Both the position numbers and the translations under genes were made by a program. A stretch of DNA of 54,597 nucleotides, filler included, from Jimgerdemannia flammicorona (lineage: Eukaryota): NCBI GenBank assembly GCA_003990765.1. It is 3 parts of 3 records of this genome, joined end to end, with 100 filler letters (N's around TTAATTAATTAA, not from the genome) between each part and the next. Parts side by side here need not be neighbours in the genome. Positions count along the whole stretch, not along the records: positions 18,235 to 36,368 come from RBNJ01002294.1; 2 more parts are not named here. One strand, given 5' to 3'. The notes beneath the pieces were generated by a model that saw nothing but the letters and a program-made list of their open reading frames with translations, searched no databases and was not told the DNA's origin. This document shows positions 7,060-50,704 of the stretch, piece after piece. Position 1 is the stretch's first letter, and each line of letters starts with the position of its first letter.

Positions 7060-7093
<34 letters not shown>

Positions 7094-10521: not shown

Positions 10522-10538
10522 AAGTCTGGATCTGAGTC

Positions 10539-10540
<2 letters not shown>

Positions 10541-10596
<56 letters not shown>

Positions 10597-18134: not shown

Positions 18135-18234
18135 NNNNNNNNNNNNNNNNNNNNNNNNNNNNNNNNNNNNNNNNNNNNTTAATTAATTAANNNNNNNNNN
18201 NNNNNNNNNNNNNNNNNNNNNNNNNNNNNNNNNN
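18135..18234. other. Assembly gap with TTAATTAATTAA linker
   Basis: N runs flank a 12-nt all-frame stop linker at 18179-18190. The same structure occurs at 36369-36468. Confidence 0.97.
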
Positions 18235-18814: not shown

Positions 18815-21800
18815 ACACTATTACTCTATCTGTTAGAGAGATATATCAGCTACCTTACTCTAGGAGAGTATTTCTCCACTCAAGTAGCTACTGCTTCTAC
18901 TATCTCTAAGACAATAAGGAATCATATACTGAGAAGTAGATTCTCAGGTACCAGACTATATTTCCTACTAGGACAACTGTTCCAATTACATCTCCTCCTA
19001 CTTTCCCTCTACCTAGTACCAGAGTCTTATACTTATGCTAGTTAAACTTAGTACCTGAGCATCTCTCATACCATTCTACTGCTTTCTTCAGTACTGCCAC
19101 ATCTTCCACTAAGCCCAGCCCTACCACTATGTTATCAGCAAAGGCCTCCACCTTCCAGTTCATTCTCAGAATATTTAACCCCCCTCTACTCTGTGTCTAA
19201 TCCAGTCTAATAAAGGCTCCAGAGAGAGGATATAGAGAATCAGTAACAATGAGTTTCCCTATAGCACTCCTCTACTTAGGGGAAAAAACTCTCTCCTATA
19301 CTTATTTACCAAAATAGCTATCTAACTCCCCTCTAATAGGTTGATCAAAGATTGCCTAAACTTTGGGAGAACTCTTATATACTTCAGTATCCCCTCAAGC
19401 CACACTTTCTGGACTCTGTCATAGGCCTTCTCTTGGTCCAGAAATACTAACCAACCATCAACCCCTGCAGTACAAGTATCTTCAGTAATACCATATATCT
19501 ATACCATCTTATCTCTTATCAAATGACCTCTAATGAAATCCCTCTGCTCTTCTTCTAATATCTGCTGAGCTACTCTCTGTAGTCTAGCCACTAATATCTT
19601 TGTAACCAACTTTCAATCCATATTCAGAAGTATGGTCAGTCTCCAGTTCTTTCAATTCTCTCTTCTCTTCTTATTCTTATATAACAGAGCTATAAGACTC
19701 AGATACTGTTCTCTAATTCAAGCTTCCAAGCTAATAACTTTATCACACATCTACATCATCTTCTCCAAAGCCAATTCCACACCTGCTATCCTCTTCCAGA
19801 AATCCCAAAGTAATCTATTCTCTTCAGGAGCCATCTTAAGACTCATTATTACTAATACTCTACAGATTTTCTCCCCTCAGATAAGTACTCTAAGTTCACC
19901 TAAGCCCTTTACTAAGTTTGGGTACCAATCCTCCTAATGTTGTCCAATGTTCTGTGCATCCTCCCTACTCTTCTCCTTACTTTATAATTGCCCTCACTGG
20001 GAACTCAACTGGTCCAAGATCCCTGAAGTACTAACTACCAACTCTCCTACCTCATCCAATACTCCTTCCCACTGCTGCCTCATCCTCTTTACCTGAAGTT
20101 ACCTCAATAAGGACTTTGTAGACCTCTCCCTCTCTTCTAAGCCCTACTACTGCAATTGTACTACAATACTCTTTATCTATAGTTCTTCCTTCTACTGTAG
20201 CAGCCCCCTCAACTCCTCTACCTCTAATCAGACCCACTGAACCCTCCAATCTCCCTCCTCTCTATTATTTAGCAGATTAGCTCACTTCACTAATAGCTTC
20301 TCTAACCTCTGAGAAGCCTACCTTAAACACCTCCTCCTCTGAGCACTCTTCCCCCTCTCTATCTTTCTCTAAAACTATTGAGCATCTGATTTTAAACACC
20401 TCTAATGATCCCCAATCACCAGCTCCTGTACACTCCAGCTAATAATTCTGGAGCTAATGTCAACTACTCATGCATTCTACAAGAAGGGCTCCTCCAGCAA
20501 AGAAATATTCAGGAACTAATATCTAGGCTCCTTCCCACTATCTCCAAACCTCTCACAATCCAGCAGACCTCAATAATCTGACCATGAGCACCAAATTATC
20601 TCTAAAGAGCCCCAGATATCTGCTCTCCAGTACTCAGCAGTTAAGATCCAGTTAATTCTTGAACTCAGCCCTACCACCCAGTGAGTATAGACCCTGCAGT
20701 CTCCCTAACCAAGATGCCCAGTATCCACTAGTAAGCTCTGACTTTCAATATCCTCTCAGTCTTCTATACTCTCACTCTTACCAGTCATCTCCCTCTCTCT
20801 ATCAGTTCTGTCCAACTATCCATCTCATATCATATTGAAGTCTCCCCCCAGATAATCAATTTCCTCTATTACCATAGTACTGGTCTCTTGAAGTCCTCTT
20901 ATCCATTCTACATACTCCTCCCTTTCTACTGGGCAATAATAAGACTCAACTGTCAGAGGGCTCCAGCTCAGTCTTCTCTATACTTCTCACATCACTCTGC
21001 TCTTCCAATGTCCAATATTCTCAATATCCCCCTTGTCCTTTCAAATTAATATGCCTATCTAACTCTGCTATATGACTATATCCCCCCATTCTCTCATCTA
21101 GTCCAGTATATCTAAGTTCTCATTGCATCTTATATCCTATAATAAGAATAGATCTACATTCAGCCCCTTCAACTAGCTGAAAATATTCCAACACCTCACT
21201 ACACCCCACAATCTATTGATATTCAAAGAGAAGATTCTAGTTGTACTGTTCATATTGAATAATGTTTTTTAAGGATCAGTTATCTGCTCTATAATTCTAT
21301 ACTCACTATATTACCAGTAACATCTAGGTTCCTCTCTGTCTCAAGCTCATCTGTCTCTCTCTGCTATACATCTAGTACTTCTAAGATCTTCTAATAGTCC
21401 TCACTATCCACAGCCTCTATATTAGACTAGTACTCCTTATATACTAGATCTCTATAGATAAGCTACACAGTCATTCATAATTACCAGAAGTACTGCCTAC
21501 TAATAGCTAATTTCTAAGCTTCTGCATTATCTCTTCTTCTTGCAGAATCTCACTCCAATGCTTTTCACTAATCATCTGAAAATCTACCTTACCTAACTCA
21601 TCTGCTATAACATTTGTCAGCATCTTCTACAACTACCTCTCCTCTCCTATGGCCTCATTGATACTTAGAGCCATCTTCTGCCCCCCAACCCTCTGATCTC
21701 TCTCAGCATTCATCCTTACTAACTCATCCCAATCCTCGTCCAGCATATTCTATAGCTCATCAGTCCCCTCTCCTCCTATGAGCACTCTATACTACACTTG

Positions 21801-23509
21801 AGTCTCCTCTACCATCACCTTATTCTCTACCACTATACTCTGCCTGGAGCCTTCACCCTCTCCCAGAGTCACTATAGGAGTCTCTCTCTTCTCCTCTGTC
21901 CAGACACTTACCCTCAATCTACCTCCTTTAGCAGTATTCTCCCCCTCTGCCCTCCCTTTCAGATTTACCAATAAGTCTTTCTAATGCTACCTCCCTTGTA
22001 TCCTCTCTTAGACCATCTGATCTAATCACACTCTTCTATCATTCACAATCTCTACCACTATCTTAGCCTTGAAATCCTTTCATGCTAGCTATCTCTTCTC
22101 TACTACTCCAGCTAGGTCTTCTAATGTCTCCAGCAAGTCCTTCTTCTCCTCTGGTATCTCCTTCACCCTCAAGACCTTATACTCTACTGGTCCCCACTTA
22201 AGTACTGCTAGCTAATCTCTTTCTTTCTCAGTATTCTCCTTGTCTGCCAGCCTTACCCTAATATCTACATCCTTAGTTCTGAACTCTGTATCTTCTTAGA
22301 CCCAAAATCTAATATTTTTTTTTATTTTTATTTTTATTTTTATAGTCACTTAGACTTCTGCCTTTATTAATACACCTGTCTATCTTCTAAATAATACACA
22401 GTACCCAACCCTATCCGATCCCCCTAGGGCCCCCCCCCTCCCCCACCCCCTACTTAATGAAAGACCACTTTGTCTAACATCATCTCCACCCACCCGCCAC
22501 TCTGTTCACAGATCCCTTCCACTAGATGGTGATGTTGCCCACCCTGGGGACCCCAACCCACTCACCACCCAGTCAGCAGATCCCCCATCAACCCCTTCCA
22601 CCTTAACAACTTCCCAAAATCTAATATCCACTACATCTCTATACTCCTTGATAATATCTATAATCAGCCTTCTGGCCATCTCCTTCTTTATCATAGATAC
22701 ATTTACCACTACTAGTTATATCACCTGAGAGTCCCAATATAGATACTAAGCCATAGAGATTGCCACCCCTCCCACTACTACTCTTTTCTCCAATGCTCTC
22801 AACATTAGATCCTTCTCCTCAAAGCCCACCTCTACTTCTTCCAGTTTCTTCAGGAACTTCACCAAAGCTGCTCCTTTTACCTTCTGAGCCAGAAGCCCCA
22901 GAACTATTTTTACTATAACTATCAAGCCTTGGAAGTATAGTATGACTGCAAATTCAGATACTAATTTCTTAAGTAATAGTACTACTATCAGATCTATTAT
23001 ACTATCAGCCTGGTCTCTAGTCCTCATGTCTTTCTCTTGCTCAGCCCCACCATTAGCTATCATATCTGAATTTTTTTTTCAGATTAGCAGTTCCCCCTCC
23101 ATTAGCAGTTTTGCTCTCCCCAACTTCTACTCTCTTAGCCCTACTGTTACTCCCACTATGGGCCTCTCTACTAGGCCCTACAGCCTCCTCCTTCTCTTTG
23201 TTCTTCTATAGCTAACTCTTCAATCCAGTTACCAGATACTCTGCCTTGATCTTGTCAGCAAAACTCATTCTCCAAGATCTCTGTCTGCTAGTCCTATCTC
23301 TTCATCCACCAGTGAGAGTACCCAACAGGCTCTCTCCCAAGTTATGACTCCTCTCTATATATTGCTAGTTGAATATACTGGGGCCACTCTACTCTGCACA
23401 CTCCTCAGATTACTCATCAGTCACAATACTATTATTATCTTTTCTTCAAAAATGATGTTGAAAGTATTGTTAAAAGTTTGTATAATCTGAATTTTACTGA
23501 AGAAAGGTG
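18815..23509 (-). mobile_element. Degenerate L1/Tx1-type LINE (5' end to late ORF2)
   Basis: Colinear with 10541-16364. ORF2 start MNSTTRIFSLN near 21250. 5' end CACCTTTCTT at 23509. Confidence 0.9.
22316..22612 (-). mobile_element. ~300-bp 5'-truncated LINE 3' end nested in LINE ORF1
   Basis: T-rich tail followed by TATAGTCACTTAGACTTCTGCCTTTATT, which matches the family 3' end. Flanked by the TSD CCCAAAATCTAATAT at 22301-22315 and 22613-22627. Confidence 0.88.
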
Positions 23510-25249
23510 CTGATTCTTTTTGAATATTATAGGATATTTATATTATTCCTTTATTTATATATATTAGTTATATTTCTCATCAATAAGTAAATTATATACA
23601 TTAATATATTTCTTATCTATAAATAGATATTTTAGATATTTTAGAATACTTTTTGACCTACAATCTGTAAAAATTCCTAGATAGTTATATTTGGATTATA
23701 TATAGTTCTAGTTTTTACATATATTATATATTACTTTTTTATTCTAATTTGTATTCCATTTTTTTAAGTATAGTTAGTATTCTTTTTTTTTAGATTATAT
23801 ATTTCATCAAGTGAGAGTATTGAGATAGCAATTTGATATATAGATATATAACTTTATACTATATACCATTTCATTAGTTTTACATTATTTATCAGTAATA
23901 CATATATAAAATATATGACTTATATAATTTAAATAAACTGCTTCTTCTATTTATCACAATATTCTGACAAATAAAGTTATATCAGTTGACTTTTTTATTT
24001 ATATAAATAAGTTCATTATAAAGATATATCTGACTGACTGGTTTAGATATATTAAATATGATAGATTCTCAGATTCCTCTGACTTAGTCTAATAAGCATA
24101 CTAAAATTGATAGAACTCTTTATATCTGAAAGTAGACCAGAGTGTAAATAAGTTTACAATTTCTTAATAGTAACTCATTGGTAGATATATCTTCTAAGTA
24201 TTACAATCCTTTTTAGATTAAATAGCCTTTGGCAGACATTTCTTTTAAGTATATTAGATAATTATATATAACTTTTACTTAAACTATTTGGACTGAGATT
24301 TATTTACTTTTATTACTAGGATATTTTATATAGATATAGTTACTATCTGGTTACTATATGGCTAATTATAAAATATATAGTAAGAATAATTTAAGAAAAT
24401 ATTCTTTCAGAAAATAGATATTTCTCTAGGATATAAGTATTTTTCCAGAGTATAGATATATCTTAGTATTATGAAATTTGTCCTAATTTAGTATATCAGA
24501 CTATTTATATAATAGTAGTATATAGAGTAACTATAGGGTAACTATACTGGATATTTTACATATTATCTAGTTATACTGTAATATTCACTTATCACTTTAG
24601 TTATTATTCTAATATCTATAGGTATCTTCTATATCTATATCTATACTATCATCTCTTTCTATATCTGAGCCACTCTATTTTAAGAGTTCTTCTTCTTCTA
24701 GAAATAAGATTTTGACTTGACTGATAATACTCTGGTAGATAGCTATATTTATTTTCTATATATTATTTAGAAAGAACTGGACTTAAGTAAGAGCTAAGAA
24801 GTTTCATTTATATATAGTATAAAGTCTATTAGCTACTAGAGTATTTCTGATATATATCTATTTTAAAGCTAGAAGATCTTGTAGTTGTCTTTCAATAATA
24901 TAGTAGGCCTGTAGTTAGTGAATCTTAAGTAACTGTTGTACTAAGGTGAGGTTCTTTTGATATATTTAGATCTATTATAGATAAGTTCTTTAAACTTTGT
25001 AAAACTGAGATAGAGAAACTAGTAAAGCTTGAAGAGAGCTGAGAATAAAGATCTGAAAGTATTAGTCAATTCTCTAGTTTATTATATTGAGAGGAAGTAT
25101 ATCTTAAGATAGTTGATATAGACTGAGATTTTTAAGATATATCTATCTATACTTCTTATATAGACACTAGTTTCTCTGAATTGTATATAAGATAAGATTC
25201 TTCCATTTAGGCTCCAATTTGGTAGCAAAGTTGATTTCAATCATACTTT

Positions 25250-26562
25250 CAGCTGCAGCAAACGCCCCGACGCGACAATTCGCAACAACAATGCACGAGT
25301 TCTGGTTCATATCCGTCCCTATTTCAGGCAACCTGACCAACACACATCTGAACTTGAAGAACAAGTTGCATGATGCCGCAGACGTTTCTCTCTTCAGCAT
25401 TCCAGTGTTCAAGATCGGAACCCTTGACGCGTTGGTTGTCATGTCCGACGATCTGGCAAAGTTTGACCTCGCCTTCGAGCAATCAACCCTGAAGATCTCA
25501 GACATTCTTCGAACCCTGCTGCGGAATACTCAGACCGACCTCAACAGCCAACTCACCGTCAACGAAAAAAGCGTGGACCAGTACATCAAAACCTTCGAAT
25601 GGAATACGACGAAATATCGCATCGACAAGTCGCTCCAAGAGATCACCGAACTTCTCAATCAGGAAGTCACGTCCATCGACACACTCATGAAGCACAAGAT
25701 GTCAAACTACACACAAGTGAAAGGGAGCCTGCAGAACTTGCAAAGAAAGGAGACAGGCAACCTGGCGGTCAAGAATTTGGTTGGAATCGTGAAGAAGGAG
25801 CATTTTGTTCTGGATTCGGAATACCTCGAAACCATCCTGGTGGCCGTCCCGAGGAACCTTTACAAAGACTGGCTCAACAAGTATGAGACTCTTACGCAGA
25901 TGGTCGTCCCGCGATCCTCGCAGAAGGTAGTGGAGGATGACGAATATGGAGTGTTCACGGTTACCCTATTCAAACGTATCGTGGAAGACTTCTCGCACAG
26001 ATGTAGAGAAGAGAAATTCGTTGTAAGGGACTTCAAGTACGACGAAGCCGCGCTTACAAACCAGAAGAAGGACCTGGAGGAGATCACTGCGACGGAGAAA
26101 GAGCAACAGACCACCCTTCTGCAGCTGGCCAAGACGAACTTTGGCGAGATCTTCGCGTCGTGGATACACCTCAAGGCTCTGAGGATCTTTGTGGAATCCG
26201 TGTTGCGTTATGGGTTGCCACCTGATTTTGCTGCCATGGCCGTCAAGCCAAAACACAAGATGGATCGCAAGGCTCGCGAGGTGCTCAATACGCAGTACGG
26301 CCACTTGGGCGGCATCCACGGCCAGCAGGTACAGTCCAAGTCCGGCGACGCGGACGAGGCGCTGGAGCAGCAGTACCAAAGTTTATTCGATAACGACTAC
26401 CACCCATACGTTTTCTTTGATGTTCGTTGGGATCCTGAGCGCAAGTGATTTATTACTGTGTAAGATATAAAAAACATGGATTGGTTTTAGCTGCTATGAC
26501 TTGAATAAGATCAATGCTGCAGTGCGGATTCCTTGAAAAAAATAAAATAAAATAAAATAAAA
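25250..26562 (+). other. Processed retrocopy unit (5'UTR + CDS + 3'UTR + A-tail)
   Basis: 13-bp direct repeat TCAATCATACTTT at 25237-25249 and 26563-26575. Tail A7(TAAAA)4 at 26536-26562. No introns. Confidence 0.9.
25291..26448 (+). CDS. VMA5: V-type proton ATPase V1 subunit C (385 aa), intronless
   Basis: Family motifs FWFISVP, FKIGTLDALV, DSEYLET, MVVPRSS and WIHLKALRIFVESVLRYGLP. The first ATG at 25291 has a good context (ACAACAATG). The ORF-track extension to 25219 runs into TE sequence. Confidence 0.96.
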   Translation: MHEFWFISVPISGNLTNTHLNLKNKLHDAADVSLFSIPVFKIGTLDALVVMSDDLAKFDLAFEQSTLKISDILRTLLRNTQTDLNSQLTVNEKSVDQYIKTFEWNTTKYRIDKSLQEITELLNQEVTSIDTLMKHKMSNYTQVKGSLQNLQRKETGNLAVKNLVGIVKKEHFVLDSEYLETILVAVPRNLYKDWLNKYETLTQMVVPRSSQKVVEDDEYGVFTVTLFKRIVEDFSHRCREEKFVVRDFKYDEAALTNQKKDLEEITATEKEQQTTLLQLAKTNFGEIFASWIHLKALRIFVESVLRYGLPPDFAAMAVKPKHKMDRKAREVLNTQYGHLGGIHGQQVQSKSGDADEALEQQYQSLFDNDYHPYVFFDVRWDPERK

Positions 26563-29500
26563 TCAATCATACTTTTCTAAACAAGAACTTAATCACTAAT
26601 TTTAATCTTCTAATCTTTCTATTTTTAGTCATAGTACTTCTTTTGTCTTTTCTGAATCTTAATTATCTGAGCTCAGGTTTAATTATATAATTATTTTACT
26701 TTTTTGAGTAGGTTTCCAAGATTCTCATAATCAGTAGTTCTGGTTTTCTTAGTAAATATCATTTTGAATAGCTTTTGTTTAGTAGATATAGCAGGGGTGT
26801 TCTAAATTTCCCATAGGATCTCAAATAGACAGAGATTCCAATTAATAGAATTTATTTAAATAAGTCCTTTCTTGATGATTCAGTTCATTTGTTCTATCAT
26901 TTTATTGATCTAAAGATAGTAGAACATAGTCTTCTTCAGGTGGATCTTGTGAATTTATATATAACTTATAATTATATTATTAATAAATTCTATATCTCAG
27001 TCAGAGATAAGTTCTTCTAGAGATCTATATCAGAATTTAAGACTATAGAGAAAACCAATAAATCAAGACATTAGTAATTTCTATTGAAAAAACTTTAAAC
27101 TATTTGATCAGATATCCTAAAAATACTATTTCTTCTTAGTATAACTAATAGAGAGTTCAATAATATCTACTTCTCATTTTTGGAAGATGTGGACTAATAG
27201 TATAATTAGTTATAGTAGTGTCTGATAGTTCTTCTTTCCTCAGTACTTCTGTCAGATATTATATCTCTTGAGTATATTTCTAACTTGTATTCAGAGTTTG
27301 GATTAGTATTAATATATTATTTATATATAACTTCTCTTCTATATTTGTCTATTCTTAATAGACTTTCTGATATTCTTGTCAGATGAGATCTTTTTGTACT
27401 TTAGTAGTCATAGAAACTTTTTTTAGAGTATAGTTTCTGAATATGTCTTTTTTCTAGTTTATTGGAGTTAGTAAGAAAGTATATTAATATTATTGTAAGC
27501 TTTCTCTACTTTGTAGATAATGGTGATTTTGTAATCTTATAGAATTACAATTTAGTGGATAAGAATTCCAGTAGGTTTCTTATAATTAAATAGTTATTTG
27601 AGAGTAGTATGGTCAGTTATTACAGTGAATTTTTTTTTAATAAGATAGTGCTTAGACAGAGTGACCACCCATATAACTATAAGATATTTTAATTTAGTAT
27701 TATTATAGTTGGCTTACTGCTTATTGGTAGCTTAGCTTATATAAACTATCACATAATACTACTGGTCAGATACTTCTTAGGCTAAGACTGCTCTGAGACC
27801 ATCTTTAAAATATTAATATACAAGATAACTGGCTTCTGCAGATTGGGTCACATAAGGACTGATACTGTAGTCATATAGTATTTAAGTTCTTTGAAGGCTA
27901 GTTTTTGTGGTTTCTTCTATTTATATAGTATTTTTTTTCTTAAGAAGAGTTCAAATTAGTATAGTAATCTGAGTAAAGTTCTTGATAAATCTTCTATAGT
28001 AAAATACTAGCATTAGAAATAATAGTATTTCTTTTAGACTTTTGGATACTGGCTAGTTATTAATCTTCTCAGTTTTCTTTAGATTTGCATAAGTTTATTT
28101 TTTAGAGACTATGAATCTAAGAAATTTGAGTTTCTGTTTTTCAAAGTAGTATTTATTAGCATTAAGTCTTAGATGGTTTTTTTGAGTAAGTTGGAAGAAC
28201 TCTTCCAGATATTATAAATATTCTTTGAAATTGGCTGAACAAATGTTGAAGTCATCTATATAGACAATTAGACAATAGTGAATAAGAGGAGCATAGACTG
28301 AGTTCATTATTCTCTAGAAGATTGGGAGAGTGTTGTAGAGTCTAAAGAGTATTTAGAGATATTTAAATAGTTTTCTAGAGTGAGGAAAGCTGTTTTTGAA
28401 TATTCTTAGAGTTTATGAGAATTTTATAGAATTCTGTAAAAAGGTCCAAACTGCTGAAGTATCTGATATTCTATAGTTGATCTAGAAGATTATTGATTTA
28501 GAATAAGAGATAAGTATTCTTTTCTATTACTAAGTTGAGTTTTCTATAATCTATATAGAGTCTCTATTCTCTTTTATTAAGTATAATAAGGATAGAGCTG
28601 ACCCAGAGGTTAGTGGAGAATTAGATGATTCTATTATCTAAGAGTTTCTGAATATATTCTTTCTCAAATGTCTTTAGATAGTAGGGTATTCTATAAGACT
28701 TCTGTTAGAGGATATTACATTTCTTATATTTATGCTATAGTAATATAATGAGTTATATGGCAGATTGTTATAGTCTGTGATAAAGTTATCCTGATATTTA
28801 TAAAGAAATTCTACTAGTTGCTACTGCTATTGAGATATTAGTTCTTCTCTAATATTGGTAAAAGATATTACATTCTCCTAAGTTATAAAGAGGTATTTTC
28901 TTTCTTCTGAGATCTTTTACTATTTTCTGATAGGTTCAATTCATAGAATTCTCTGTGTGTCTGATTAAGATAGAGTACTAGATAGCCTATAATAGTTTCT
29001 TTTAACAGAATGAGGTTGTCCTAACTTTGATTGGTTGCTTGGAAATATAAAGATTTCATTTTGTTAGAAAATATGTATCCTTCTATATCAAGGTTTTTGA
29101 GATCTTTATTTGGTTTAAAGAAGAAGTTTCTAGGGTCTAGTGGTATAAAGATTTTGAAGATAGTCTGCTCTTCTGGTTCTAGGATAAGGTTTTTGAGGAG
29201 TTTCACTGATTAATAGTATATTTATTGAAGTATATTCTTCTTAAGATAATTGACTTAAAGGAGATATATATCCTTTCTATCTAAGCTTTTAAGGCCTTTG
29301 GTCTATCTCATGCCTTGGATTAATTCAGAGACTTTCTGAAGTTAGAGTGTCTCAACCTTCATAAAAACAGCTTGAGAAATTTTCTCTCCTCCATAGATTC
29401 AGATTTATTTAATATTACTATTTTTCAAGATGACATTGATTTTACCTATATATCTAGAGTCTATTATTTCTCCTTTTATAGTAATTTCTTGTTTTGTAAA

Positions 29501-29771
29501 TTTAGATCTTGAGATTAGTTAAATATAAGTTCTTTGAGATAGCTATATAGTAAGTTCTATACTAAGAAGTACTATACTTCTAAAGTTGATAGTTTCATCT
29601 TAGTGACTACAAAAATCATAGTCTATATCTTCTCTATGGGCTTTCATTAAGGATCTGACTTCAGGGTACAGTAAGATATACTGTATAATATCTTTACTGA
29701 GTACAGATTATCCTTGAGCTAAGGCTTCTATAGTTATAAGTCTCTAAGTTCTAATATTGAGATATAGCTAT

Positions 29772-31240
29772 TGTCACATAGTGGTCACTGAGTCCTTCAA
29801 ATATACCAGATTCTCTTCAAGGTGTATCTCTTAGACTAACTCAAGTTTGTTATAAGCAAGTTCTTATTGGAGTTCCTTCCTAAGGTCTTATAGTCCTCAA
29901 ACTTCTTATTTTTAACTGTCTTGTTATCTCTTAGATTGCTTGCAAGGAAGTGTGTATATTATACTAAGAAGACTGTCTTTATTTCAGAGAAAATAAGAGA
30001 GGTATTTATACAAAATATAATTCAATAGTTGCTAAGATATAGAGCTAAATATAAATTCCAATAGCTAAAACTACTAAGTTCCAGAGTTGGTACTGATGGT
30101 TGTACAGGTTCAGGATACTGGTATAATTTGATGTCACATCAGAATACCAGTGCTGGCATTATTCAGTGTAACAAAGAACTTAGAGTAGAAAGTTCAGGAC
30201 CATGGGGGCTTCATCCTTATCATCAGAGGTCGGGATATCTTCAAAGGAGATGAGGTCCACAAATTCATCATATAGGTTGCATGTTTCACATATGTCAAAG
30301 TCACATGGGATGATGTCATTGCTGATGACATCATCATGTTCGGTGGTGGGGAAATCAGGGGCTCTCCAATCTATGAGGTTCTCTTCCACAAAATAAGGAA
30401 CAAATGTGGGGTCTTAGAGAGGTCTAACCTGGATACTTGGGCCTTGGAATACTGAGATCAATCCTTGCAGGAATTGGTCTGGGTTGTCCTGAAGGATGGG
30501 ATGCCAGAAGTCTTCTACTTTATCACTATTGAGGGTGATAGTGAACTGGGCTTCTGTAGCCACCCTGGCTTCTAGTGCATTGATATGGTGGGATGATAGG
30601 TCTCTGAAATCTGAGACTCTAACATACTCCAAGTTGGAGATTGACCATGGTGCATGCCTGAAGATCTGATGGATCTTCTTAGCCATTCTTGCCTTGCGTA
30701 TATCCATGGGAGTAATATCTTGTAGCTCTTGAGGGCTAGCCTGTGGGAACTCCCAGTAGAGGAGGTTTCCTATTTCATACTCCTGCTACATTTGGAGGTA
30801 TTCGGTAGCAATAGTGATCCTCATTTTCATTTCACAGCAGTAGAGAATGAAGTGATAAGGGTCTGCAGTACTCAGGTCGACACTAGGAGTCCTTCTTGAG
30901 CAGGTTCTCATAGCTCTTCTGATGTCTTGGAACATCCTTTCTTCAACTGAGGTACCTTGGTGGTTCCTTGACCTTGAGGTTTGGTGGACAGCAGGCATTT
31001 CATTTGTAGTAAGTCTTTGAGCTATTTTGGGATTGGTGGGTCTTGTTGGTTACTGCTACTGCAGTTCTTTGATCCTTCTTTTATATTTTTCAAGATACTC
31101 ATACTGTGGTCACAATGACTCACAGTTAGTCATCATTGCTCATCTTGTATGCCATATGATCTCCTTGTGCTCTGATCTGGTGGCTTGCAAGGAAAGACTG
31201 TCTCCTGTGCTGATGTCATCATTCTGGGATCACCATTACA
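29772..31240 (-). repeat. 3' LTR of copy A (~1.47 kb) with PPT at 31241-31250
   Basis: The minus strand reads AGGAGGAAGA|TGTAATG ... TGTGACA. TATAAATA at 30003-30010 and AATAAA at 29978-29983. The same block flanks both ends of copy B. Confidence 0.8.
30180..30998 (-). pseudogene. LTR (U3)-encoded ORF of unknown function, ~272 codons with two premature stops
   Basis: Track ORFs 30786-30998, 30414-30707 and 30180-30389 share one frame and are separated only by TAG/TAA (CAG/CAA>T). Upstream TATAAAAG at 31078-31085. Homologous relics occur in all four LTRs. Confidence 0.75.
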
Positions 31241-31553
31241 TCTTCCTCCTGAATAAGGATCTTCTCAAGTATCCTTATTTATTGGTCCAGTCCTGAAAAA
31301 TTTGCTGATCCCATAACCTCTAGCAAGGGGTCGAAAAGTGGTATTTATGGGCTGGCATCTTCTCTTTGTATTTTGGCATAATGGTGAAGGGTTGCTCCCT
31401 TCATATAGAGCAAGGACCTGATTCTGATCTTGACTAATCAGTTGACAGTTCAAACTCCACTGACTTTGAAAGTCTCACAGATGAGTAGTTGCCAGTGCTG
31501 TATCCCTTAGAGAATGGTCCAGACAGATAGCCTGCTGGTCATGGGACATGCTG

Positions 31554-34500
31554 TTACGATTCATGGACTAGAACCTCATGGGCAGTCATCACATTTTGCT
31601 TCTCTTGTATAGGTTTGTGGTACTTCTTGAGTCTGTTCCTGTATACCATAGTAGGCAGTATGGTCCCTAAGATTTTTCTAAGCCAGAAGGTAGTTCCCTT
31701 GATATCTTGCATGTAGAAGGGTCCTTCCCATTTGGGCTCCAGTTTTCGTGACCATGAGGCTTCTACCATATTTCAATACAGTAGAACCTTTTCTCTGATT
31801 CGGATGGGTTCTAGGGCCTTGTGATTCTTTTTCGCATTCTTCCCTGTCAGCATTTGTGACTTGATGATGTAATCTTCAGCCTTCTTCCTGATCTGGTGTA
31901 GTCTCCAGATTTCTGCATCAATCCATCTCCAAGTTAGATCTAGATTTGTGGCTGAGGTTCCATCAGAATCTTCTTCTCCAAAGAGCAGTTCTCTTGGGGT
32001 AAAGTGTATGCTCTGTGACCATATGTCTCATAGGACAGAGAGGGTGGTTGGGAGATAGTTATCCCAATTCTTATATGTCTCTGAGATTTTCGCTAGAATG
32101 TTCTTGAGGGTTTTGTTGGTTCTCTCTGTCTGTCCATTTCCTTGAGGGTGGTATGCAGTGGTCTTGATGTGCTGGATCTTGTATTTCTGATACATTATCT
32201 TGTGGAATCCATTGATGAATTCTATGCCACAGTCTGTTGTGATTTACTTTGGTGTCTTGTAGTGGCAGATGATTTCTTGGTGCAGGAAGTTGGCTATAGA
32301 GAGAGCATTGGCCTCTTGTAATGCTCCTGCCTCTATCCATTTGGTGAAGAGGTCTACAATAACTATAATATAGCGGTTTCCTGATAGTGTTACTGGTAGT
32401 GGCTCAATGATATCCATTGCAATGTAGTAGAAGAGGATAGACTCAATTCTTGATAACCCAGGTACCTGGTCTTGCTAATCTTGTTTCTGTTTTTGGCACT
32501 TGTCACACCCTTTGACAAATTGGCACAAGTCTTCTTCCATCTTAGACCACTACATAGTTCTTCTTGTCTTATCATATGTATTGATTCCTCCTAGGTGTCC
32601 TTGCTCATGTACTTCCTTCATTACTTAATAGTTCTTGTGTTTGAGTATTACTAGCTTTCCTCCTTTTCTGAGTATAGTGTTGTCTAATTCAAACTGTTTC
32701 CAAGTCCAGTTGATGATGGTGATTGTCCAGGGTTTGAGGTGGTTGGACATCTTCTGCTGCCCAAGATAGCTGATTAATCCATAGTATAGCTCCTTATTCA
32801 TGTTGAATAGTCCTGATGGGGGTATTTTGGGGTATCCTTGAGAGTATATCAGCATTGGTATTGGTCTTTTCTGAGTAGTGTTTGACAGTACAGTCATACT
32901 CTTGCAGTCTGTAGATCTATCTGGCATATATTCCTTTGGGGTTCAGAGTGTAGAATAGCCAGGCAAGAGTGGAATGGTCTGTTTGAATGGTGAAGTATTT
33001 CCCAGCTAGGTAGTAGTGGAACTTGTCTACTGTCCAAACTACTGCTAAGCATTCAAGCTTGCATGACTCATAGTTCTGTTCTGCTCTATGAGTATCTCAG
33101 CTTGCATAGGAGATGACATATTTATGTCCATCTTTCTTCTGAGCTAGGACTGCTCCAAGTCCTATAGTACTTGCATCTGTCTGCAGGATGAATTCTAGGT
33201 TCCAGTCTGGTCTTCTGAGGATAGGTGCTTGGGTCAACCTGATCTTGAGTTCATTGAAGGTTTCTTGGTACTCTTTGGTCTATTCGAATTTTGTTTCCTT
33301 CTTCAGTAGCTCATAGATAGATGCTGTGATGTTGGAGTATCCTTTGATGAATCTTCTGTAGTAGCTAGCCAGTCCAAGGAAGGCATGGACTTCTGTAGTT
33401 GTTCTGGGTCTTGGGTAGGCTACAACAGCCTCGATCTTTATAGAGTTTGTGTGGATTCTGGTCTGGTTGATGAGATATCCTAGGTAGGCGATTTCTTGAG
33501 CTGCAAACTTACATTTCTTGGACTTGATGTAGAGGCCATACTCCTTGAGCTTCTTGAGGGCTAGCTGTATGTGATTGATATGTTCCCGTACAGTGTTGCT
33601 GAAGATGATCATATCATCAACATAGACAAAGAGCCATTTTCCAATCTCATTACTGAAGACTCTGTTCATTATTCGCTAGAAACTTGCTGGGGCATTGTAC
33701 ATTCCAAATGGCATTTGCAGATAGATATAGGTGGCATCAGGTATGATGAAGGCTGATTTCTCACTGGCATCTTGAGTGAGACCAATTTGATGGAAGCCTG
33801 AGAACAGATCTAAGGTGGTGTAGTATTTGGCTTTGCTTCTAAGGGTGGTAAGGATTTCTTGAATATTCAGCAAGGGCTGCCTATCCTTCTTGGTGATGGT
33901 ATTGAGCTTCCTGTAGTCAATGCAGAGTCTTGGTGCAAACTCTCCAGGTTTGCTTCCTTTCTTTGGGGTGAGGACAATGGGTGAGGCCCAGGGGCTGATA
34001 GCTTGCTTGATGATTCCAGCTTCTTCTATTTCCTTGAGTTCTGCTTGCAGCCATTCTCTGTAGGCAGGTGGTATGGGTCTGGCTTTCTGGTAGATAGGCT
34101 TGGTATCACCAGTGTCAACTTCATGATAGTACTTGGGTTCTTGATTATGGATATCTCTAAAGTCTGTAGCAAGTACTCCTTTGTTCTGGTGCAGGATCTT
34201 GAGAAGTTGTTCCTCCAGGGGAAAGTTTTCTCCAATGATATATGTGTGCTTGTTCTGGTCCTTGTCTTTCTTATACTCAAGTTCAGTAATCTTGGTGGCA
34301 GTATAGGCTCTTCTTCCAGTAGATCCAAAGCCTTGTTCTCCTCTCTTGGTCTTGATGAGTTTGATGGCTTCTATGATCTTGGGCTTCTTGATTTTGTGGA
34401 TCAGCATCTGGCCAATCCTGTCATGCTTCTTGACTTTGAATGGGGTGGTGGGGTTGTGATTCCTGACTATGAGGAAGATCTCACCAGTGTAATCAGGGTC

Positions 34501-36360
34501 AATTACTCCTCCTTCAACTGAGATTTCGCTTTTGGTCAGACTGCTCCTGGTCTTGATAATTCCAGTGTAGTTCTCTGGTAGCTTGACTCCAATTCCAGTG
34601 CCAAGTAGGGTGGTGGTCTGTGGTTTAAGGATAGCATCTTGAATGCTGGCAAGGTCCATTCCTATGACTCCTTCAGTCTTGTATTCTGGGATCTTGGCTT
34701 CAGGGTGAAACTTCTTGACCTTGAGGGTGATGTCTGATTCTTATTCCTCCTCATCATTACTATCAGCTTGAAGCTCTGGGGGCTGGTCATCTTCTTTGGC
34801 TTTTCTTTTTGCTTTGGCGGCTTCTTGCTTGTGTTTCTATTGATGGATTTTCCTAACTTCACTGATACAGGACCAGCAGTCATTCAGGTGTTCAGAGCAG
34901 TACATTCTAGTACCATGGAGGCATCTTCCTTGAGAGGTATAGCCATTGATGATCTTGTTGTACCACTGCTCATCTGTGAGCTTGGGTGTCTTGTTCTTGT
35001 TCTTGTTCTTGTTCACTGAGTACATGAAGACCTCTGTGTCCTCTTCATCTTCTTTCTCCATATCTGGTAGGACTCCTTTGTGAACATTGATAGAGACTCA
35101 TATCTTTCTTCCTCTATAGTTGATCTGCATCTTCTGAGCATTGAGGTCAATGATGGCCTTGGCCTTGTAAAGCCATTGGTTGCCAATGAGGATGTCATAG
35201 TTAGTGGCGCTTGTAACAATCATGTCTACTGGGATGGTAGCTCCTCCTATCTTGATGGGGACTTCTCAGATTTTGCCAAGGGGGGTAGCTCATGTACCAT
35301 CTGCTGTAACATAGACCATCTTGGTGGACTCTTCAATGTCCCAGCCTAGGCAGTTGATTGCCTTCTTGCTTATGAGGCATCCTTCAGCACCGGTATCAAT
35401 AATGGCATCAAAGATATAGTCCTCAATCTGGCAGGGGGTATAGGCTGATGTCTTGCACTGATCTTCGGATTCTTCACCTGAGTTCTCAGATTCTTCCTGT
35501 ACATTGTGAGCTTCTACAATCTTGTACTCTTGATTCTTGGCAGTAGTTGCAAGTCCTACTCTCAACTGCTGTCTGAAGGCAGGGACTTCGGCTAGTTGTC
35601 CAAAAGTAGCATTGACCTTCTGTTCCTTGAGGTCCTTGTAGATATCATACTGGTGGATCTTGGTCTTGCACAGCTTCTGTTCCTTCTTGCTTTCACTTTC
35701 TCCTGAGACTGGAGTAGTGCCTTCAATGATTTGGCAGGCAGCTTTATCTAACTCCATGTCTTAATCAATCTTCTCTGGTTGAGTCTTGCTTTGAATAGTG
35801 ACAGCTGGGGTCTTCTTTGGTCTTCCAACTGGCTTGCTGTTGCTCTTCTTATCATAGGGCTTGGACTGGGTTCTGGTACCTTCAGTAGCAGGGTAGAATT
35901 CAAGCTCCTCATAGTATTCTTCATCATCAGTATCACCAATCTCCTCGATGACTACTGCATTGGTTTGTTCTCTGGTTCTGCCAGCATTGCTTGGTTGGGC
36001 TTTGCATCTTGTTTCAGTCATACAACTCTTTGCATAGTGGCCTTCTTCTCCACATCTGAAGCATGTGATATTGTGTTCTTCTGTAGTGACTGCAAATCTC
36101 TGCACTGGTCTCCTATTGGTGCTTTGGACTTCTCTAACAACATCACTAAGGTGTGCAGTCATCTTAGTGAACTGCTTGGCAAGTTCTTCCACTGGGTCAG
36201 CTTTGGCTGTCTTGGGAGTAGGTGGGGTTGGTTGTCTGTTTACAACTGTGGTGGGTATGATACTAGTTGGCTTTGATGGCTCCATCTTGATACCAGTTAT
36301 TTTCTCCATTGAGTGTTCGGCAGGGTGTCTGGCAGTCCAATATCTCTGTGCAAAGACCAC
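31554..36360 (-). pseudogene. gag-pol polyprotein of copy A with scattered nonsense codons
   Basis: Track ORFs starting at 36360, 35757, 35061, 34659 and 33669 are in one frame. The TAA at 35761 is CAA in copy B. Confidence 0.88.
34315..34731 (-). other. Trimeric dUTPase domain between protease and RT
   Basis: All five motifs are recognisable: GMDL, RSSL, GGVIDPDYTGEI, DRIGQM, RGEQGFGSTG. A decayed homologue lies at ~44045-44460. Confidence 0.93.
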
Positions 36361-36368
36361 TTTCTGAT

Positions 36369-36468
36369 NNNNNNNNNNNNNNNNNNNNNNNNNNNNNNNN
36401 NNNNNNNNNNNNTTAATTAATTAANNNNNNNNNNNNNNNNNNNNNNNNNNNNNNNNNNNNNNNNNNNN
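36369..36468. other. Assembly gap with TTAATTAATTAA linker
   Basis: N runs with the linker at 36413-36424. Confidence 0.97.
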
Positions 36469-36909
36469 TTTCCAAATTAGACAATTAAATGTTTACATCA
36501 ATAACTTGATGAATAATCATCCAAATTTGATGATCTTGGTGTCATTTGAAAGCCCTTAATAAGGCCTATCTAATGATACCAAGAACATTGAAATCAGATC
36601 ATGCGTTGCTGAGTTATGAAGGAAAACGTCTGAATCACCGATTTGGAAATTTCGTCAAATGGAACGTTTTCCTTAATATCTCGGCAACACGTAATCCGAT
36701 TTTAATGTTCTTGGTATCATTAGAAAGGCCTTATTAAGGGCTTTCAAATGACACCAAGATCATCAAATTTGGATGATTATTCGTCAAGTTATTGATGTAA
36801 ACATTTAATTGTCTAATTTGGAAATCAAAACAATGGTTGATTCGAATCCGATTCGAATCCGATTCGAATCCATCCGAATCCCATCCGGATTGACTCGTTC
36901 GGAGCACTA
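36469..36909. mobile_element. Palindromic MITE family 1 copy 2 (inverted relative to copy 1, left end in the gap)
   Basis: Ends GACTCGTTCGGAGCACTA. The central spacer is the reverse complement of that in 9945-10521. Confidence 0.85.
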
Positions 36910-39529
36910 GAAATAACTAATAGAAAATTAGTCAATTAATTAAATCTTATTATAATAGAAGATATAGATATAAAAGAATTATAGATAAATTCAGAAAAAA
37001 TTCTTATTATTATAATATACTAAATTTTAAATTTATAAGTCCAACTAGATAACTAGAAAACAAAAGAACTATATTTTATAATATATAACTTATTTTATAG
37101 TTATATCTATTAGTTTTAAGCTACTTAAGCTAGATATCTTCAATAGTCACTATAAAGAACTATTTCTAATATCTGAATCTTCTAAATAGATCAATACTTT
37201 GAGCTAATAAAATTGAAAAAAGATATATAAGTTTAATTTATCACTATATTTCTCTGAGAAAATATAACTATCTAGTAATATAATTATATTATAATTATCT
37301 TTATCTATTGAGAAATAAGAATTGAAAATTAGAAAATATTCAAAGAGATCCTCTATAAGTAGTTTAAGCTTATAAATACTATTAAGCTAACTAAAAAATA
37401 AACTAGTAAATATCAAATAACTCAAGTTTGTACAAAGTAATAATACATATATATATAATTTCTATTAATTCTTTTAAAACTATCTGATATTATAAAAGAT
37501 GAGAAGATAGACTACTATATCTAAAGCTTAAAAGAGAATATATAAGTTAAGATTAAACTAGAGAAATTAAGATTTCTTAGAAGCTATGAGAATTACTAAT
37601 AGATTTGATATTATTATCTATAGTTACTACTTTGAATCAAAATACTATAAAAAGAATCACTTTAAAAACTATTACAAAAACTAGCTCAAAAATAGACTAT
37701 ATTTTAGAACTTATTTAGTAGGAGGGTCTTGAGTCCTAGATCTATATTAGAACTTAGCTGCTATTCTAGTAAAAAATATTATAACTATCTCTATCTAAGT
37801 TATAGATATTATATATAGTTATTAAAGAGTATAATTTATATTATTAATAAATATTTAGACTAGTAGTGAATTGTATTTTTTTTTTAGTTAACTCTATATT
37901 CTATATTGATAATATTGATAAATATCTCAATATTACCTTTCTACTAAATATTAAAATTTATAAAATCTTAATAGATTTATTCTATTTTACAATTTATCTA
38001 ACTATTTTTACTAGTACTGCTATCTATAGAATATATAAGAGCTTGAATCTGACTATTAGTTATTGTGATTATTGGTGATAATACTATGAGAGTTAACTCT
38101 TCTAATAAGAGATCTGCCTAGTATAGTTGAGATACTATATAACTTAGAGTTGCTTGGTTTTTAATAAGAAGATTAAATAAATTTACAAGGTTAGATAGTC
38201 TAAATCTCTAAACAAATAACTGATCTTATTCAGATATCTGGAATTCTTAACTCTTTTAGTCACTAAGAGTAATTAGTTAAAATATTTCTAGATCTATAGT
38301 TTCTTATTAACTATTATCAGATTGATAACTTTCTAGATCTTTCTCAGAGTTACTATCTTGATAAGTATAGATATTATAGTGCTGACTTAGTCTTTTAAAA
38401 AGAATTTCTAATTCTTGTTAAGTAGTTAGTCTTACTTCTTATTCTAAAGTCTATAGGAGTGAGTCTAACTATTCTTATTAATATCTTATTATTAAGTTTA
38501 TATAGTAGATTACTACTTGATAATAGAGTGATATTTAGATTAAAGTAATATAATATTAATCTAATTTAATCTACTTATCAATAGATATTTATACTATAAT
38601 ATTAAAGATATGACTAAAGAATTTCTAGATGGTTATAATAGTTAAATCTAGATTCTTAGTAGTACTAGTATAACTTTGAATAAAGGTATTAAATCTATAA
38701 TAGCTGTAGATATTCCTAAGACCTAGGTAATAGTTTCTAAATATATATCTTATATAGATTCTAGTAGATTTGGATTACTAGCTATTAATTAAGATCTTAA
38801 TTAATATTTTCTTAATTCTAACTAATCTTAATAGCTATTGTAAGATAGGTTCTTATTTATAGATCAACTTTTGAATTATTTACAATTAGTTCTGAGTTTC
38901 TCCTATCTAAAATTGAGTCTTGATTCTAACTTACAAAAGAGTCTTAATATTATCTTAGTTTGGAATTCTATTACTATTAAGTTGTAATAATACTTATTAT
39001 TATCTCAAACTTATCTTTGAATAACTTAGATAATAAGATATTACTTAGAGACTTAATATATGAATATATCAAATTATTTATTTACTTAGTTATACTAAGA
39101 TTGAAGAAGTATAGTTTCTTTATAATAGAATAAAGATATTTCTCTTCTTTAGTAACTATAGTTATAAGAGACTTATTCTTTTTATATATATACTAAATCT
39201 CTTATAATTCAGATTTAAAGAAGTTTTTTTTTTTTAATTTATATATTAGTTCTCAGTTTGACAAAATTTAGTTATACTTCTAAAGTTTAGTTAGAAATAC
39301 TAAAATAACTTAAATATTATTACAAAAAAACTTAAATATATATATATATAGGAGAGACTTTTTATATTTTATACTAAATTAAGAGCTGATTTATTTTGAA
39401 TATAATTTTTAAAATATTTATATATATTGGCTAAGTAATATATAGTTCATAGATTTTGACTAAGTATATATAACTACTCTATTTATTCTATGAGCAAATA
39501 TACTATTTATATTCAGAACAACTAACTAT
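36910..39529. other. Extremely AT-rich hypermutated relic, possibly an old plus-strand RT element
   Basis: CT/AG-only residual composition. Possible FYADDI relic (FYIDNI, ~37900) and FRYLG relic (~38230). Weak. Confidence 0.35.
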
Positions 39530-48556: not shown

Positions 48557-48638
48557 CATCTTTCTCCGCTATATTTCATATTACACACATTTTACAAATA
48601 CACTTTCGATTTGTTTATTAGAGAAAGATATTAAGAAG

Positions 48639-50673: not shown

Positions 50674-50704
50674 AGGAGAGGTTTAATCTTTAACAATATT
50701 CCTC

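Follow-up and report, generated by a model that had tools for sequence, protein, structure and literature searches.

A 1,470-bp long terminal repeat (LTR) of a fungal Ty3/Gypsy family contains a sense open reading frame (ORF), and this 1.47-kb LTR probably holds a complete accessory gene that would be situated in the U3 region and provided with a TATA box of its own. We suggest, tentatively, that a U3-type accessory gene may here be seen for the first time in a non-retroviral element, with every LTR of the family able to express a trans-acting nuclear factor. The LTRs of retrotransposons have been regarded as regulatory DNA only and are masked by annotation pipelines; genes inside LTRs are therefore systematically missed. 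Where a gene is carried inside the LTR, even a solo LTR may amount to more than a promoter, namely to a gene. The host is an early-diverging soil fungus of the Endogonales, which are little studied and rich in transposons.

The element and its LTR copies

The window, i.e. the whole stretch of 54,597 nucleotides of Jimgerdemannia flammicorona DNA analysed here, is composed of three contigs joined by N linkers and carries Ty3/Gypsy elements in the order gag-PR-dUTPase-RT-RNaseH-IN, all on the minus strand, as are the features described below unless otherwise indicated. The internal region of copy A (31251-36368) is decayed and ends at the contig end (N linker at 36369). A Pfam search of the Gypsy internal region detected zf-CCHC (E = 2.9e-06), RVT_1 (1.3e-11 and 8.8e-15), RT_RNaseH (4.2e-31), Integrase_H2C2 (1.1e-11) and rve (5.7e-09); the protease matches stayed under the Pfam cut-off (24.8 versus 28.2 bits). 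A dUTPase domain (PF00692, 3.4e-27) occupies residues 14-142 of the ORF at 33679-34740, immediately ahead of RVT_1. The predicted domains thus follow the Ty3/Gypsy (Metaviridae) order gag - PR - RT - RNase H - IN. A search for a chromodomain at the integrase C-terminus, which covered 31241-33699 in three read-through frames, gave no Chromo match at E<=0.01 in this decayed copy, where a weak domain could escape, and because this search was empty the label "chromovirus" was dropped.

Self-BLAST and a four-way alignment revealed one block, the LTR, that follows the internal regions of copy A (31240->29771) and copy B (41078->39529), also precedes the internal region of copy B (48556->46673), and occurs a fourth time as copy C (18134->17145), of which the last ~1 kb is present, the remainder being cut by the contig end. 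Copy B is bounded on either side by direct long terminal repeats, just as had been annotated initially: its 3' LTR (B3, 39529-41078) and 5' LTR (B5, 46673-48556) share 84% identity over 1,522 aligned bases, with 212 transitions and 31 transversions. About 95 bp of the start of B5 are gone, and a 440-bp foldback (MITE-like) insertion without assigned strand (47539-47978), flanked by duplicated GCCATAGT, splits its ORF. No target-site duplication was seen in the window, where copies A and C end at contig ends and the 5' LTR of copy B is incomplete; it is because of the truncation of this upstream block that copy B offers neither an intact 5' end nor a target-site duplication.

Limits of the LTR

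The 3' LTR of copy A spans 29771-31240 and has the form TG...ACAA, as defined by alignment, loose ends and depth steps. A polypurine tract, AGGAGGAAGA (31241-31250), read from the sequence, adjoins the LTR and abuts the TG at 31240/31239; B3 has one too. The LTR of ~1.5 kb with a boundary between polypurine tract and TG at 31240, as proposed in the initial annotation, is thereby borne out. At the other end, all four LTR copies stop at an identical ...ACAA, after which four unlike sequences follow. The 5' LTR of copy B is followed by a tRNA-type primer-binding site (46657-46671), which is decayed and matches the undecayed form TGGTGCCCATTGG (element strand) found in the loose ends of public contigs at 29771 (runs X1, X2 and X3). 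In copy B as well as in the loose ends of the three runs this site starts with TGG, 2 nt past the LTR. A search of the window for the priming tRNA yielded no tRNA genes.

To test the LTR limits, public contigs were aligned over 29000-32500. In X1 and X10 the depth was zero at 29117-29701 and began in the bin 29702-29818. Loose ends at 29771 were observed in nine contigs of X1, one of X2 and one of X3, all of which continue into the common tRNA-type primer site. The unitigs of X2 terminate at 31234 and 31236. Run X10 covers 29702-31339 only, with a depth of 11.8-7516 in the bins of this interval and 0-2 outside. The loose ends of X10 fall at 31233, 31240 and 29769, and past both limits the run passes into unrelated sequence. 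Since X10 contains the LTR alone with unrelated sequence on either side, the LTR exists as a free-standing unit. None of the runs listed for this sequence is registered as RNA. As the RNA status of X10 is a guess and its contigs enter unrelated flanks, this run was used for the LTR limits and not for expression. Polypurine tract, primer site, the shared end of the four copies and the breaks in the public contigs together confirm the LTR limits.

The public soil contigs contain many divergent LTR copies with a high summed depth, as a repeat would give.

The ORF inside the LTR and its decay

In copy A the ORF extends from 30998 to 30180 and comprises 272 codons (30998->30183) and a TAA stop. Starting 242 nt after the first base of the LTR, it stays wholly within the latter in a single sense frame, in agreement with the ~272-codon ORF recognised earlier; the 5' LTR of copy B has it as well. 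Two in-frame stops, TAG at 30788-30786 and TAA at 30416-30414, interrupt it and are private to copy A; nearly all public contigs have G at position 30416 (codon CAA), the depth of G being 1187.7 of 1197.2 in X1, 21 of 21 in X3, 598.3 of 598.3 in X10 and 71.4 of 80 in X2. The ORF of B3 (40819->39968) contains 8 in-frame stops and that of B5 (48406->47115) contains 14. The start codon had been described as preserved, which holds for 30998 and 48406; in B3 it has been changed to ATA at 40819. Every LTR copy in the window is dead, having been inactivated by transition hypermutation (2 stops in A, 8 in B3 and 14 in B5; C is partial). The Cys-rich motif CDFDICETC, to which the initial annotation drew attention, turned out to be a result of C>T decay of Arg codons, the intact relative P0002 having Arg/His there.

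With the 440-bp insertion excepted, the indels inside the ORF among the window copies all have lengths divisible by three (15, 18, 15 and 24 nt), and the length changes that set the LTR lineages of A and B apart stay in frame. The transversions between A and B are distributed over the three codon positions as 12/7/11 (p=0.50), indicating no coding constraint within the window, and their rate is 4.4% in the ORF and 5.4% in the non-coding LTR. CpA accounts for 104 of 234 C/T columns (baseline 125/333), and TpG for 84 of 158 G/A columns (baseline 98/270). Because this dinucleotide bias is only modest, we did not call the decay RIP; in the portion of text covered from a RIP survey (PMC12543289), Jimgerdemannia is not mentioned.

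Relatives of the ORF and selection

Relatives of the LTR ORF were found as 13 cluster representatives (6 + 4 + 3), all from ENA/JGI metagenomes, and none of the 13 has a cellular annotation or originates from a named genome. The full-length relatives are intact, range from 271 to 342 aa, form four deep lineages with 28-80% identity, and all start with MPA or MPP. A Nei-Gojobori comparison of copy A with locus L001 over 269 codons gave pS 0.70, pN 0.27 and dN/dS 0.16; the ratio was 0.22 between A and locus L002 and 0.20 between L001 and L002, synonymous sites being saturated. Judged from these comparisons, the LTR frame is a real protein gene under purifying selection outside the window. The initial annotation had named a non-conserved frame as the finding that would speak against it, and dN/dS values of about 0.16-0.22 show the opposite.

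When A was compared with L001 by blastn, only the ORF part within the LTR still aligned (31017-30363, 70.6%). The L001 protein is 62% identical, and the locus retains the order TATA-1, ORF, TATA-2, AATAAA (see below). Residence in an LTR is demonstrated for the lineage of the window alone, and L001 is compatible with it. The translated flanks of L002 gave chance-level matches only against the window, and a 33-nt direct repeat (82%) in L002 was judged too weak as an LTR mark. A metagenome scan for further loci yielded two short contigs only, the viral_contigs and genome_contigs sets yielded none, and blastn of the LTR against plasmids, an uninformative comparison, gave no matches.

Signals and proposed transcription

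A TATA-like sequence, TATA-1 (TATAAAAG, 31078-31085), is located 87 nt ahead of the ATG and is a candidate promoter of the LTR gene. In the alignment it shares its column with the motif of B3 (40902-40909) and B5 (48489-48496), and its distance to the ATG is 65 nt in L001, 80 nt in L002 and 65-87 nt in every lineage with DNA. In the AT-rich window TATAAAAG occurs 11 times against 7.2 expected and is not rarer than chance; its weight therefore comes from the conserved position. A second sequence, TATA-2 (TATAAATA, 30003-30010), a candidate promoter of the genomic RNA, is found in each of the four LTR copies as well as in L001, and an AATAAA poly(A) signal (29978-29983) stands 27 nt past it, with equal spacing in L001. 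The pair of TATAAATA and AATAAA was seen 8 times against 0.08 expected, and four of the eight are the four LTR copies. The box ahead of the ORF and the main TATA/AATAAA pair downstream, both of which had been annotated, were thus located, and the ORF (30998-30180) falls between the LTR start (31240) and TATA-2 (30010) and AATAAA (29983).

A TATA box closely followed by AATAAA is what a U3/R/U5 border usually looks like when R is very short. As the conserved TATA-2, with AATAAA 27 nt later, stands downstream of the ORF, we infer that the ORF is placed in U3. With this layout, transcripts from TATA-1 would include the ORF and acquire their poly(A) tail at the signal of the LTR itself, giving an mRNA of ~1.1 kb, and transcripts from TATA-2, starting at or past AATAAA, would give the genomic RNA. 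Each LTR, whether 5', 3' or solo, would be a self-contained expression unit. If this is true, two tandem promoters per LTR trade accessory mRNA against genomic RNA, and solo LTRs left by recombination keep supplying the shared factor.

Alternative explanations

The same signals might be arranged otherwise, with TATA-1 driving the genomic RNA and the ORF lying in an R region of ~1.1 kb rather than in U3. Both ends of the genomic RNA would then contain the ORF, which would be a first cistron ahead of gag like Ogre ORF1, and the poly(A) signal of the 5' LTR would be used or bypassed to give a short ORF mRNA or the full-length RNA. TATA-1 is indeed the sole signal kept in every lineage with DNA, L002 included, and the conserved leader around the ATG suits a first cistron. 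Nevertheless, TATA-2 and an AATAAA at 27 nt are kept in the four LTRs of the window and also in L001, whose non-coding LTR is otherwise unalignable, and the pair is the classic short-R arrangement; moreover, an R of 1.1 kb is unusually long. We consider the long R unlikely. That the ORF is a passenger captured from the cell or from another mobile element, its conservation reflecting selection elsewhere, seems still less likely to us. The evidence of LTR residence stops short of the deep lineages (L002, P0019 and P0141) and the ORF within the window decays like non-coding DNA, as would be expected of such a passenger, but not one of the 13 relatives has a cellular annotation or a named genome as its source, L001 keeps the order of signals and ORF at 62% protein identity, the many divergent, deeply covered copies in the public soil contigs are repeat-like, and the A and B LTR lineages differ by in-frame length changes.

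The initial annotation had allowed that the LTR might measure only ~400 bp, with 46674-48556 as a tandem second element; the ORF would then be an internal gene behind pol, and 46673-48556 the tail of an upstream element in tandem. The truncated upstream block of copy B, which shows neither an intact 5' end nor a target-site duplication, would suit this arrangement. It is highly improbable in view of the common ends and the public-contig limits: only ~95 bp separate the truncation from the predicted start of the LTR, the polypurine tract is at 31241-31250 and not before 30170, X10 contains the entire 1.47-kb block with unrelated flanks and no internal region, and the unitigs of X2 stop at 31234 and 31236. 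The lack of a known domain might also suggest a chance open frame in AT-poor LTR DNA rather than a gene; this is refuted by the frames of 271-342 codons that have stayed intact in four lineages with identities as low as 28%, and by saturated synonymous sites and a dN/dS of about 0.2.

The predicted protein

The net charge of the protein is +5 to +8 over residues 1-45 in three of four members and -14 to -27 beyond residue 215. No transmembrane segment was found, the best 19-residue Kyte-Doolittle mean being 1.07, which accords with the earlier remark that no env-like segment is apparent. The product might be a soluble protein whose head is basic and rich in Arg, whose core is helical and whose strongly acidic tail bears hydrophobic-acidic motifs.

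A Pfam search with 11 members at E<=1 assigned no family; the only matches, ATG5_HBR (E 0.088, 2 of 11) and GAE_BBS1 (E 0.23, 1 of 11), were dismissed as chance-level. A sequence-profile search of the PDB gave no matches at E<=10, and the ESM Atlas gave no lead (best feature score 0.83, best TM 0.33). The fold models are weak, with pLDDT of 55.7 and 69.0 (core model), and Foldseek found no PDB match for either at E<=0.001. In the VIA wide structure search the best Z scores of the two models were 4.0 and 4.7. The best match of the core model was 2rek_B (Z 4.7, rmsd 1.8 over 43 residues), and at least 14 of the 50 matches listed are titled TetR/AcrR regulators and align to model residues ~20-65, all with Z <5, i.e. 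at noise level. The most plausible, though doubtful, role of the product would be in the nucleus, on expression or silencing of the element itself. Such a factor, with its basic head, helical and possibly HTH-like core and acidic tail, would promote transcription or counter silencing family-wide. The LTR ORF adds an orphan protein family open to tests on LTR-driven transcription or silencing, and provides a testable case of an element supplying a factor in trans to its own family.

Comparison with known systems

The sag gene of mouse mammary tumour virus (MMTV) is an ORF in the U3 of the LTR that is expressed from spliced RNAs. The ORF described here resembles it in being a sense gene of ~300 codons wholly within the LTR and, as far as the putative signals tell, ahead of the main promoter and the poly(A) signal; being wholly inside the LTR, a gene of this type is present in both LTRs. 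To this extent the retroviral U3 genes cited in the initial annotation are apt analogues, genes so placed being familiar otherwise from a few retroviruses, and the fungal LTR gene would be a non-retroviral parallel to sag. The likeness is one of position: Sag is a type II membrane glycoprotein, whereas the fungal protein is without a hydrophobic segment and shows no sequence or family match, an own TATA box is proposed here instead of splicing, and the gene resides in an env-less Ty3/Gypsy retrotransposon of a fungal host. Extension of a 3' accessory gene into U3 is also known from HIV/SIV nef and foamy-virus bel/bet, whose products are non-enzymatic adaptors or regulators. These genes start in the internal region and only overlap the 3' LTR, in contrast to the fungal ORF, whose start lies 242 nt past that of the LTR and which recurs in the 5' LTR; it gave no family match.

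A literature search, with subscription journals and Repbase outside its scope, found no earlier LTR-retrotransposon with an ORF within its LTR, and the term "LTR ORF" led to MMTV papers. According to the parts of a review consulted, additional ORFs (aORFs) of plant LTR-retrotransposons, such as Ogre ORF1, Grande gene23, those of RIRE2 and Retand, and env-like ORFs, are present in all or most copies of a family, and a retrovirus-like accessory role has been proposed for them (PMC7264820). The fungal ORF is similar to them as a conserved extra ORF with no function assigned. The aORFs are described as internal, located in the interval that separates the 5' LTR from gag or pol from the 3' LTR, often in antisense, and none is described inside an LTR in those parts (PMC7264820); the fungal ORF does not have this internal placement.

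The backbone of the element has counterparts in fungal Ty3/Gypsy elements. A dUTPase between PR and RT is reported in the sections seen on PosPlaTy3-5 of Postia placenta and Tmt1 of Tuber (PMC2864245, PMC6431247), which share the arrangement gag CCHC, PR, dUTPase, RT, RNase H and IN. As presented in those sections, both are chromodomain elements of Dikarya, whereas the present element has no detected chromodomain, belongs to a host of the Endogonales and carries a gene in its LTR.

Copies of the Gypsy family

The minus strand of the window contains several copies of one Ty3/Gypsy family, designated copies A, B and C. Linkers of the form N44-TTAATTAATTAA-N44 at positions 18135-18234 and 36369-36468 join three contigs artificially, so that the window is not one molecule and features are not to be read across these positions. 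Copy A (36368 to 29771, minus strand) and copy C are each cut at a contig end by a linker. Copy A gave Pfam matches to zf-CCHC (2.9e-06), RT_RNaseH (4.2e-31), Integrase_H2C2 (1.1e-11) and rve (5.7e-09), together with sub-threshold matches to an aspartic protease, and no chromodomain was detected in it. A dUTPase domain (33679-34740, minus strand; 3.4e-27) lies between the protease and the reverse transcriptase of the Gypsy pol, directly before RVT_1. Fungal Gypsy elements with a dUTPase in this position have already been described (PMC2864245; PMC6431247); this arrangement is known from elements of Dikarya, whereas the host here belongs to Mucoromycota.

Limits of the LTR

The initial annotation had proposed an LTR of about 1.5 kb with a boundary at 31240. 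Self-BLAST and a four-way alignment revealed the same LTR block in four places on the minus strand: after the internal region of copy A (31240 to 29771), after that of copy B (41078 to 39529; the 3' LTR, B3), before that of copy B (48556 to 46673; the 5' LTR, B5), and in copy C at the end of contig 1 (18134 to 17145). All four end in the common terminus ...ACAA, followed by four unrelated sequences, one of which is the start of the copy B internal region, opening with a decayed primer site. At the other end, AGGAGGAAGA directly precedes the TG of the LTR at 31240.

Public contigs of four coded sequencing runs (X1, X2, X3 and X10) were mapped on positions 29000-32500 at 85% likeness or more. 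Depth at 29117-29701 was zero in X1 and X10, with traces below 1 in X2 and X3, and began in the bin 29702-29818. The loose ends at 29771 (9 contigs in X1, 1 in X2 and 1 in X3) had one common continuation, which on the element strand is a TGG-initiated tRNA-type primer site matching the decayed one of copy B. In X10, depth was confined to the bins 29702-31339 (11.8 to 7516, and 0-2 outside), and loose ends at 31233, 31240 and 29769 led into unrelated sequence. In X2, two unitigs of 151 nt start at 31234 and 31236. We concluded that the LTR is 1,470 bp long, in line with the size of about 1.5 kb that had been proposed, and that it is also present as a unit on its own.

Reading frame and decay of the window copies

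As the initial annotation had described, the LTR of copy A holds a sense ORF of 272 codons in a single frame, which starts with an ATG at 30998 and closes with a TAA at 30182-30180. It is interrupted by two in-frame stops, TAG at 30788-30786 (TGG in B5) and TAA at 30416-30414 (CAA in B3 and B5). At position 30416 of the public contigs, G accounts for 1187.7 of 1197.2 depth units (X1), 21 of 21 (X3), 598.3 of 598.3 (X10) and 71.4 of 80 (X2), so that the second stop belongs to copy A alone. In the register of copy A, B3 has 8 stops and B5 has 14. The start codon, reported at both 30998 and 48406, is indeed kept at the latter position in B5 and is ATA in B3. Length differences among the ORF copies (15, 18, 15 and 24 nt) are all multiples of three, barring an AT-rich, MITE-like foldback insertion of 440 bp (47539-47978) in the LTR gene of B5. 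This insertion has long hairpin arms (47632-47750 and 47756-47874) with 79% complementarity and is bordered by a duplicated GCCATAGT. B5 also lacks about 95 bp from its start, beside a LINE.

Repeats at 29700-31330, 39460-41170 and 46620-48660 are heavily decayed, mainly by transitions, and AT-rich tracts lie at 7001-10000 and 37001-40000. Transitions account for 392 of the 491 two-state alignment columns (80%), copies A, B3 and B5 have CpG observed/expected ratios of 0.02-0.12, and the CpA/TpG bias of the decayed repeats is modest. The GC content is 29-31% in copy B against 41% in copy A, and falls to 18-23% in neighbouring tracts. Between the A and B lineages, ORF transversions by codon position (12/7/11, p=0.50) indicate no constraint, with transversion rates of 4.4% for the ORF and 5.4% for non-coding LTR sequence. 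The divergence of A and B is post-mortem decay, and every copy in the window is dead. The string CDFDICETC, singled out earlier in the acidic tail, is a product of this transition decay, the intact relative P0002 having Arg and His there.

A protein family under purifying selection

Relatives were found in 13 cluster representatives: 6 by a word-indexed search of 5.8 billion clusters, 4 new among 5 matches by exhaustive phmmer against 1.84 billion representatives, and 3 new among 11 matches by a profile search. All 13 come from ENA or JGI metagenome assemblies; none carries a name beyond 'hypothetical protein' or has an annotated genome as its source. They form four lineages, whose identities to the metagenome protein P0001 are 72-80% (the group of the window), about 56% (P0009/L001), 40-47% (P0017/P0019/L002) and 28-33% (P0141/P0020). 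Full-length members have 271-342 aa and all start with MPA or MPP.

DNA was obtained from two metagenome contigs with intact ORFs, L001 (323 codons) and L002 (291 codons). By the Nei-Gojobori method, dN/dS was 0.16 for A-L001 (269 codons, pS 0.70, pN 0.27), 0.22 for A-L002 (249 codons, pS 0.72, pN 0.38) and 0.20 for L001-L002 (284 codons, pS 0.73, pN 0.39); because synonymous sites are saturated these values are rough, although their direction is clear. These ratios point to purifying selection among the three sequences; against this stand the transversions between the A and B lineages of the window, which indicate no constraint. By blastn, the copy A LTR aligned to L001 only in the coding part (31017-30363, 70.6%). 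We concluded that the LTR contains the whole of a gene under selection.

Properties of the protein

Searches of Pfam families and of PDB sequences gave no match for the LTR-gene protein. The absence of a transmembrane segment, remarked on before, was borne out by a best 19-residue hydropathy mean of 1.07. The N-terminal stretch (residues 1-45) is Arg-rich and basic, with a net charge of +5 to +8 in three of four members. Beyond residue 215 the protein is strongly acidic (net charge -14 to -27), and a conserved LNF motif closes this tail in three of the four lineages. The full-length AlphaFold2 model is weak (pLDDT 55.7); that of the 172-residue core is better (pLDDT 69.0) and mostly helical with a small terminal sheet. 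Foldseek returned nothing at E<=0.001 for either model, and the best Z scores in VIA-align were 4.0 and 4.7. At least 14 of the 50 VIA-align rows listed for the core are TetR/AcrR regulators, all below the tool's meaningful level, with their N-terminal helix-turn-helix aligned to model residues ~20-65. A helix-turn-helix in the predicted core may be taken as a lead only. This combination of a basic head with a helical core and an acidic tail would fit a nuclear regulator directed at nucleic acid or chromatin, an assignment that we regard as tentative.

Candidate transcription signals and interpretation

TATA-1, TATAAAAG (31085-31078), is a candidate promoter situated 155 nt into the LTR, 87 nt upstream of the ATG, at the identical alignment column in B3 and B5 and, as stated in the initial annotation, upstream of the main TATA/AATAAA pair. 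The motif also precedes the ATG in L001 (65 nt) and L002 (80 nt). With 11 matches in the window against 7.2 expected it is not rarer than chance, and its weight is therefore positional. TATA-2, TATAAATA (30010-30003), lies downstream of the ORF, with AATAAA (29983-29978) 27 nt further on; the pair is present in all four LTR copies and in L001, and occurs 8 times in the window where 0.08 occurrences would be expected. In retroviral LTRs with a very short R, the poly(A) signal usually stands behind a TATA box by roughly the distance from a promoter to its start site. Because the pair lies after the ORF in this arrangement, the ORF would be located in U3. The LTR gene would be an accessory gene carried by the element, with transcription from TATA-1 and polyadenylation at the signal in the LTR itself, and genomic RNA would be started by TATA-2, beyond that signal. 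Each LTR, solo LTRs included, could thus be an expression unit.

A layout with a long R, in place of the short-R arrangement suggested by the TATA-2/AATAAA pair, is unlikely though still to be reckoned with, and that the gene is a captured passenger is less probable again. A short LTR of about 400 bp with a tandem second element is close to excluded, since the block is shared in four places with the same end and the public contigs have their limits at 29771 and about 31240. A chance frame is the least credible of all; the gene in the LTR is real and more than chance.

By position, the gene resembles sag of MMTV. The nef gene and the bel genes of foamy viruses, which overlap the 3' LTR only, are less close, and the LTR gene has no family in common with sag, nef or bel. 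Searches of openly accessible full-text literature turned up no precedent for an ORF within the LTRs of LTR retrotransposons; an earlier description may exist.

Other features of the window

An uninterrupted frame of 422 codons (25180-26445, plus strand) encodes V-ATPase subunit C (Pfam PF03223, 9e-141). Over 79% of its length it shares 99% identity with a partial Jimgerdemannia flammicorona protein at NCBI, the next best matches being other Mucoromycota at no more than 62% identity. This places the host as that species, a member of the Endogonales, or a near relative of it, and not as a pathogen of animals, plants or crops. Directly adjoining copy B at its truncated 5' LTR is a LINE-type element (48702-54597, plus strand; Exo_endo_phos 1.1e-11, RVT_1 6.6e-13), which is GC-rich (49-56%) and G-skewed.

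Long tracts at 10001-16000 and 18235-23000 have a strong excess of C over G (GC skew -0.27 to -0.55) and share repeats, for example 12424-12723 with 18463-18762 and 19369-19668. Their tested ORFs had no Pfam match, and the tracts are probably another repeat family. A U6atac minor-spliceosome snRNA gene (15907-16047, plus strand; Rfam RF00619, 42.7 bits with the gathering score at 33, E 3.4e-07) is situated within repeat-like sequence of strong C skew. A palindromic repeat about 440 bp long occurs at 36469-36909, at a contig start, and at 9945-10458, and its copies match each other in both orientations at 83-88%.
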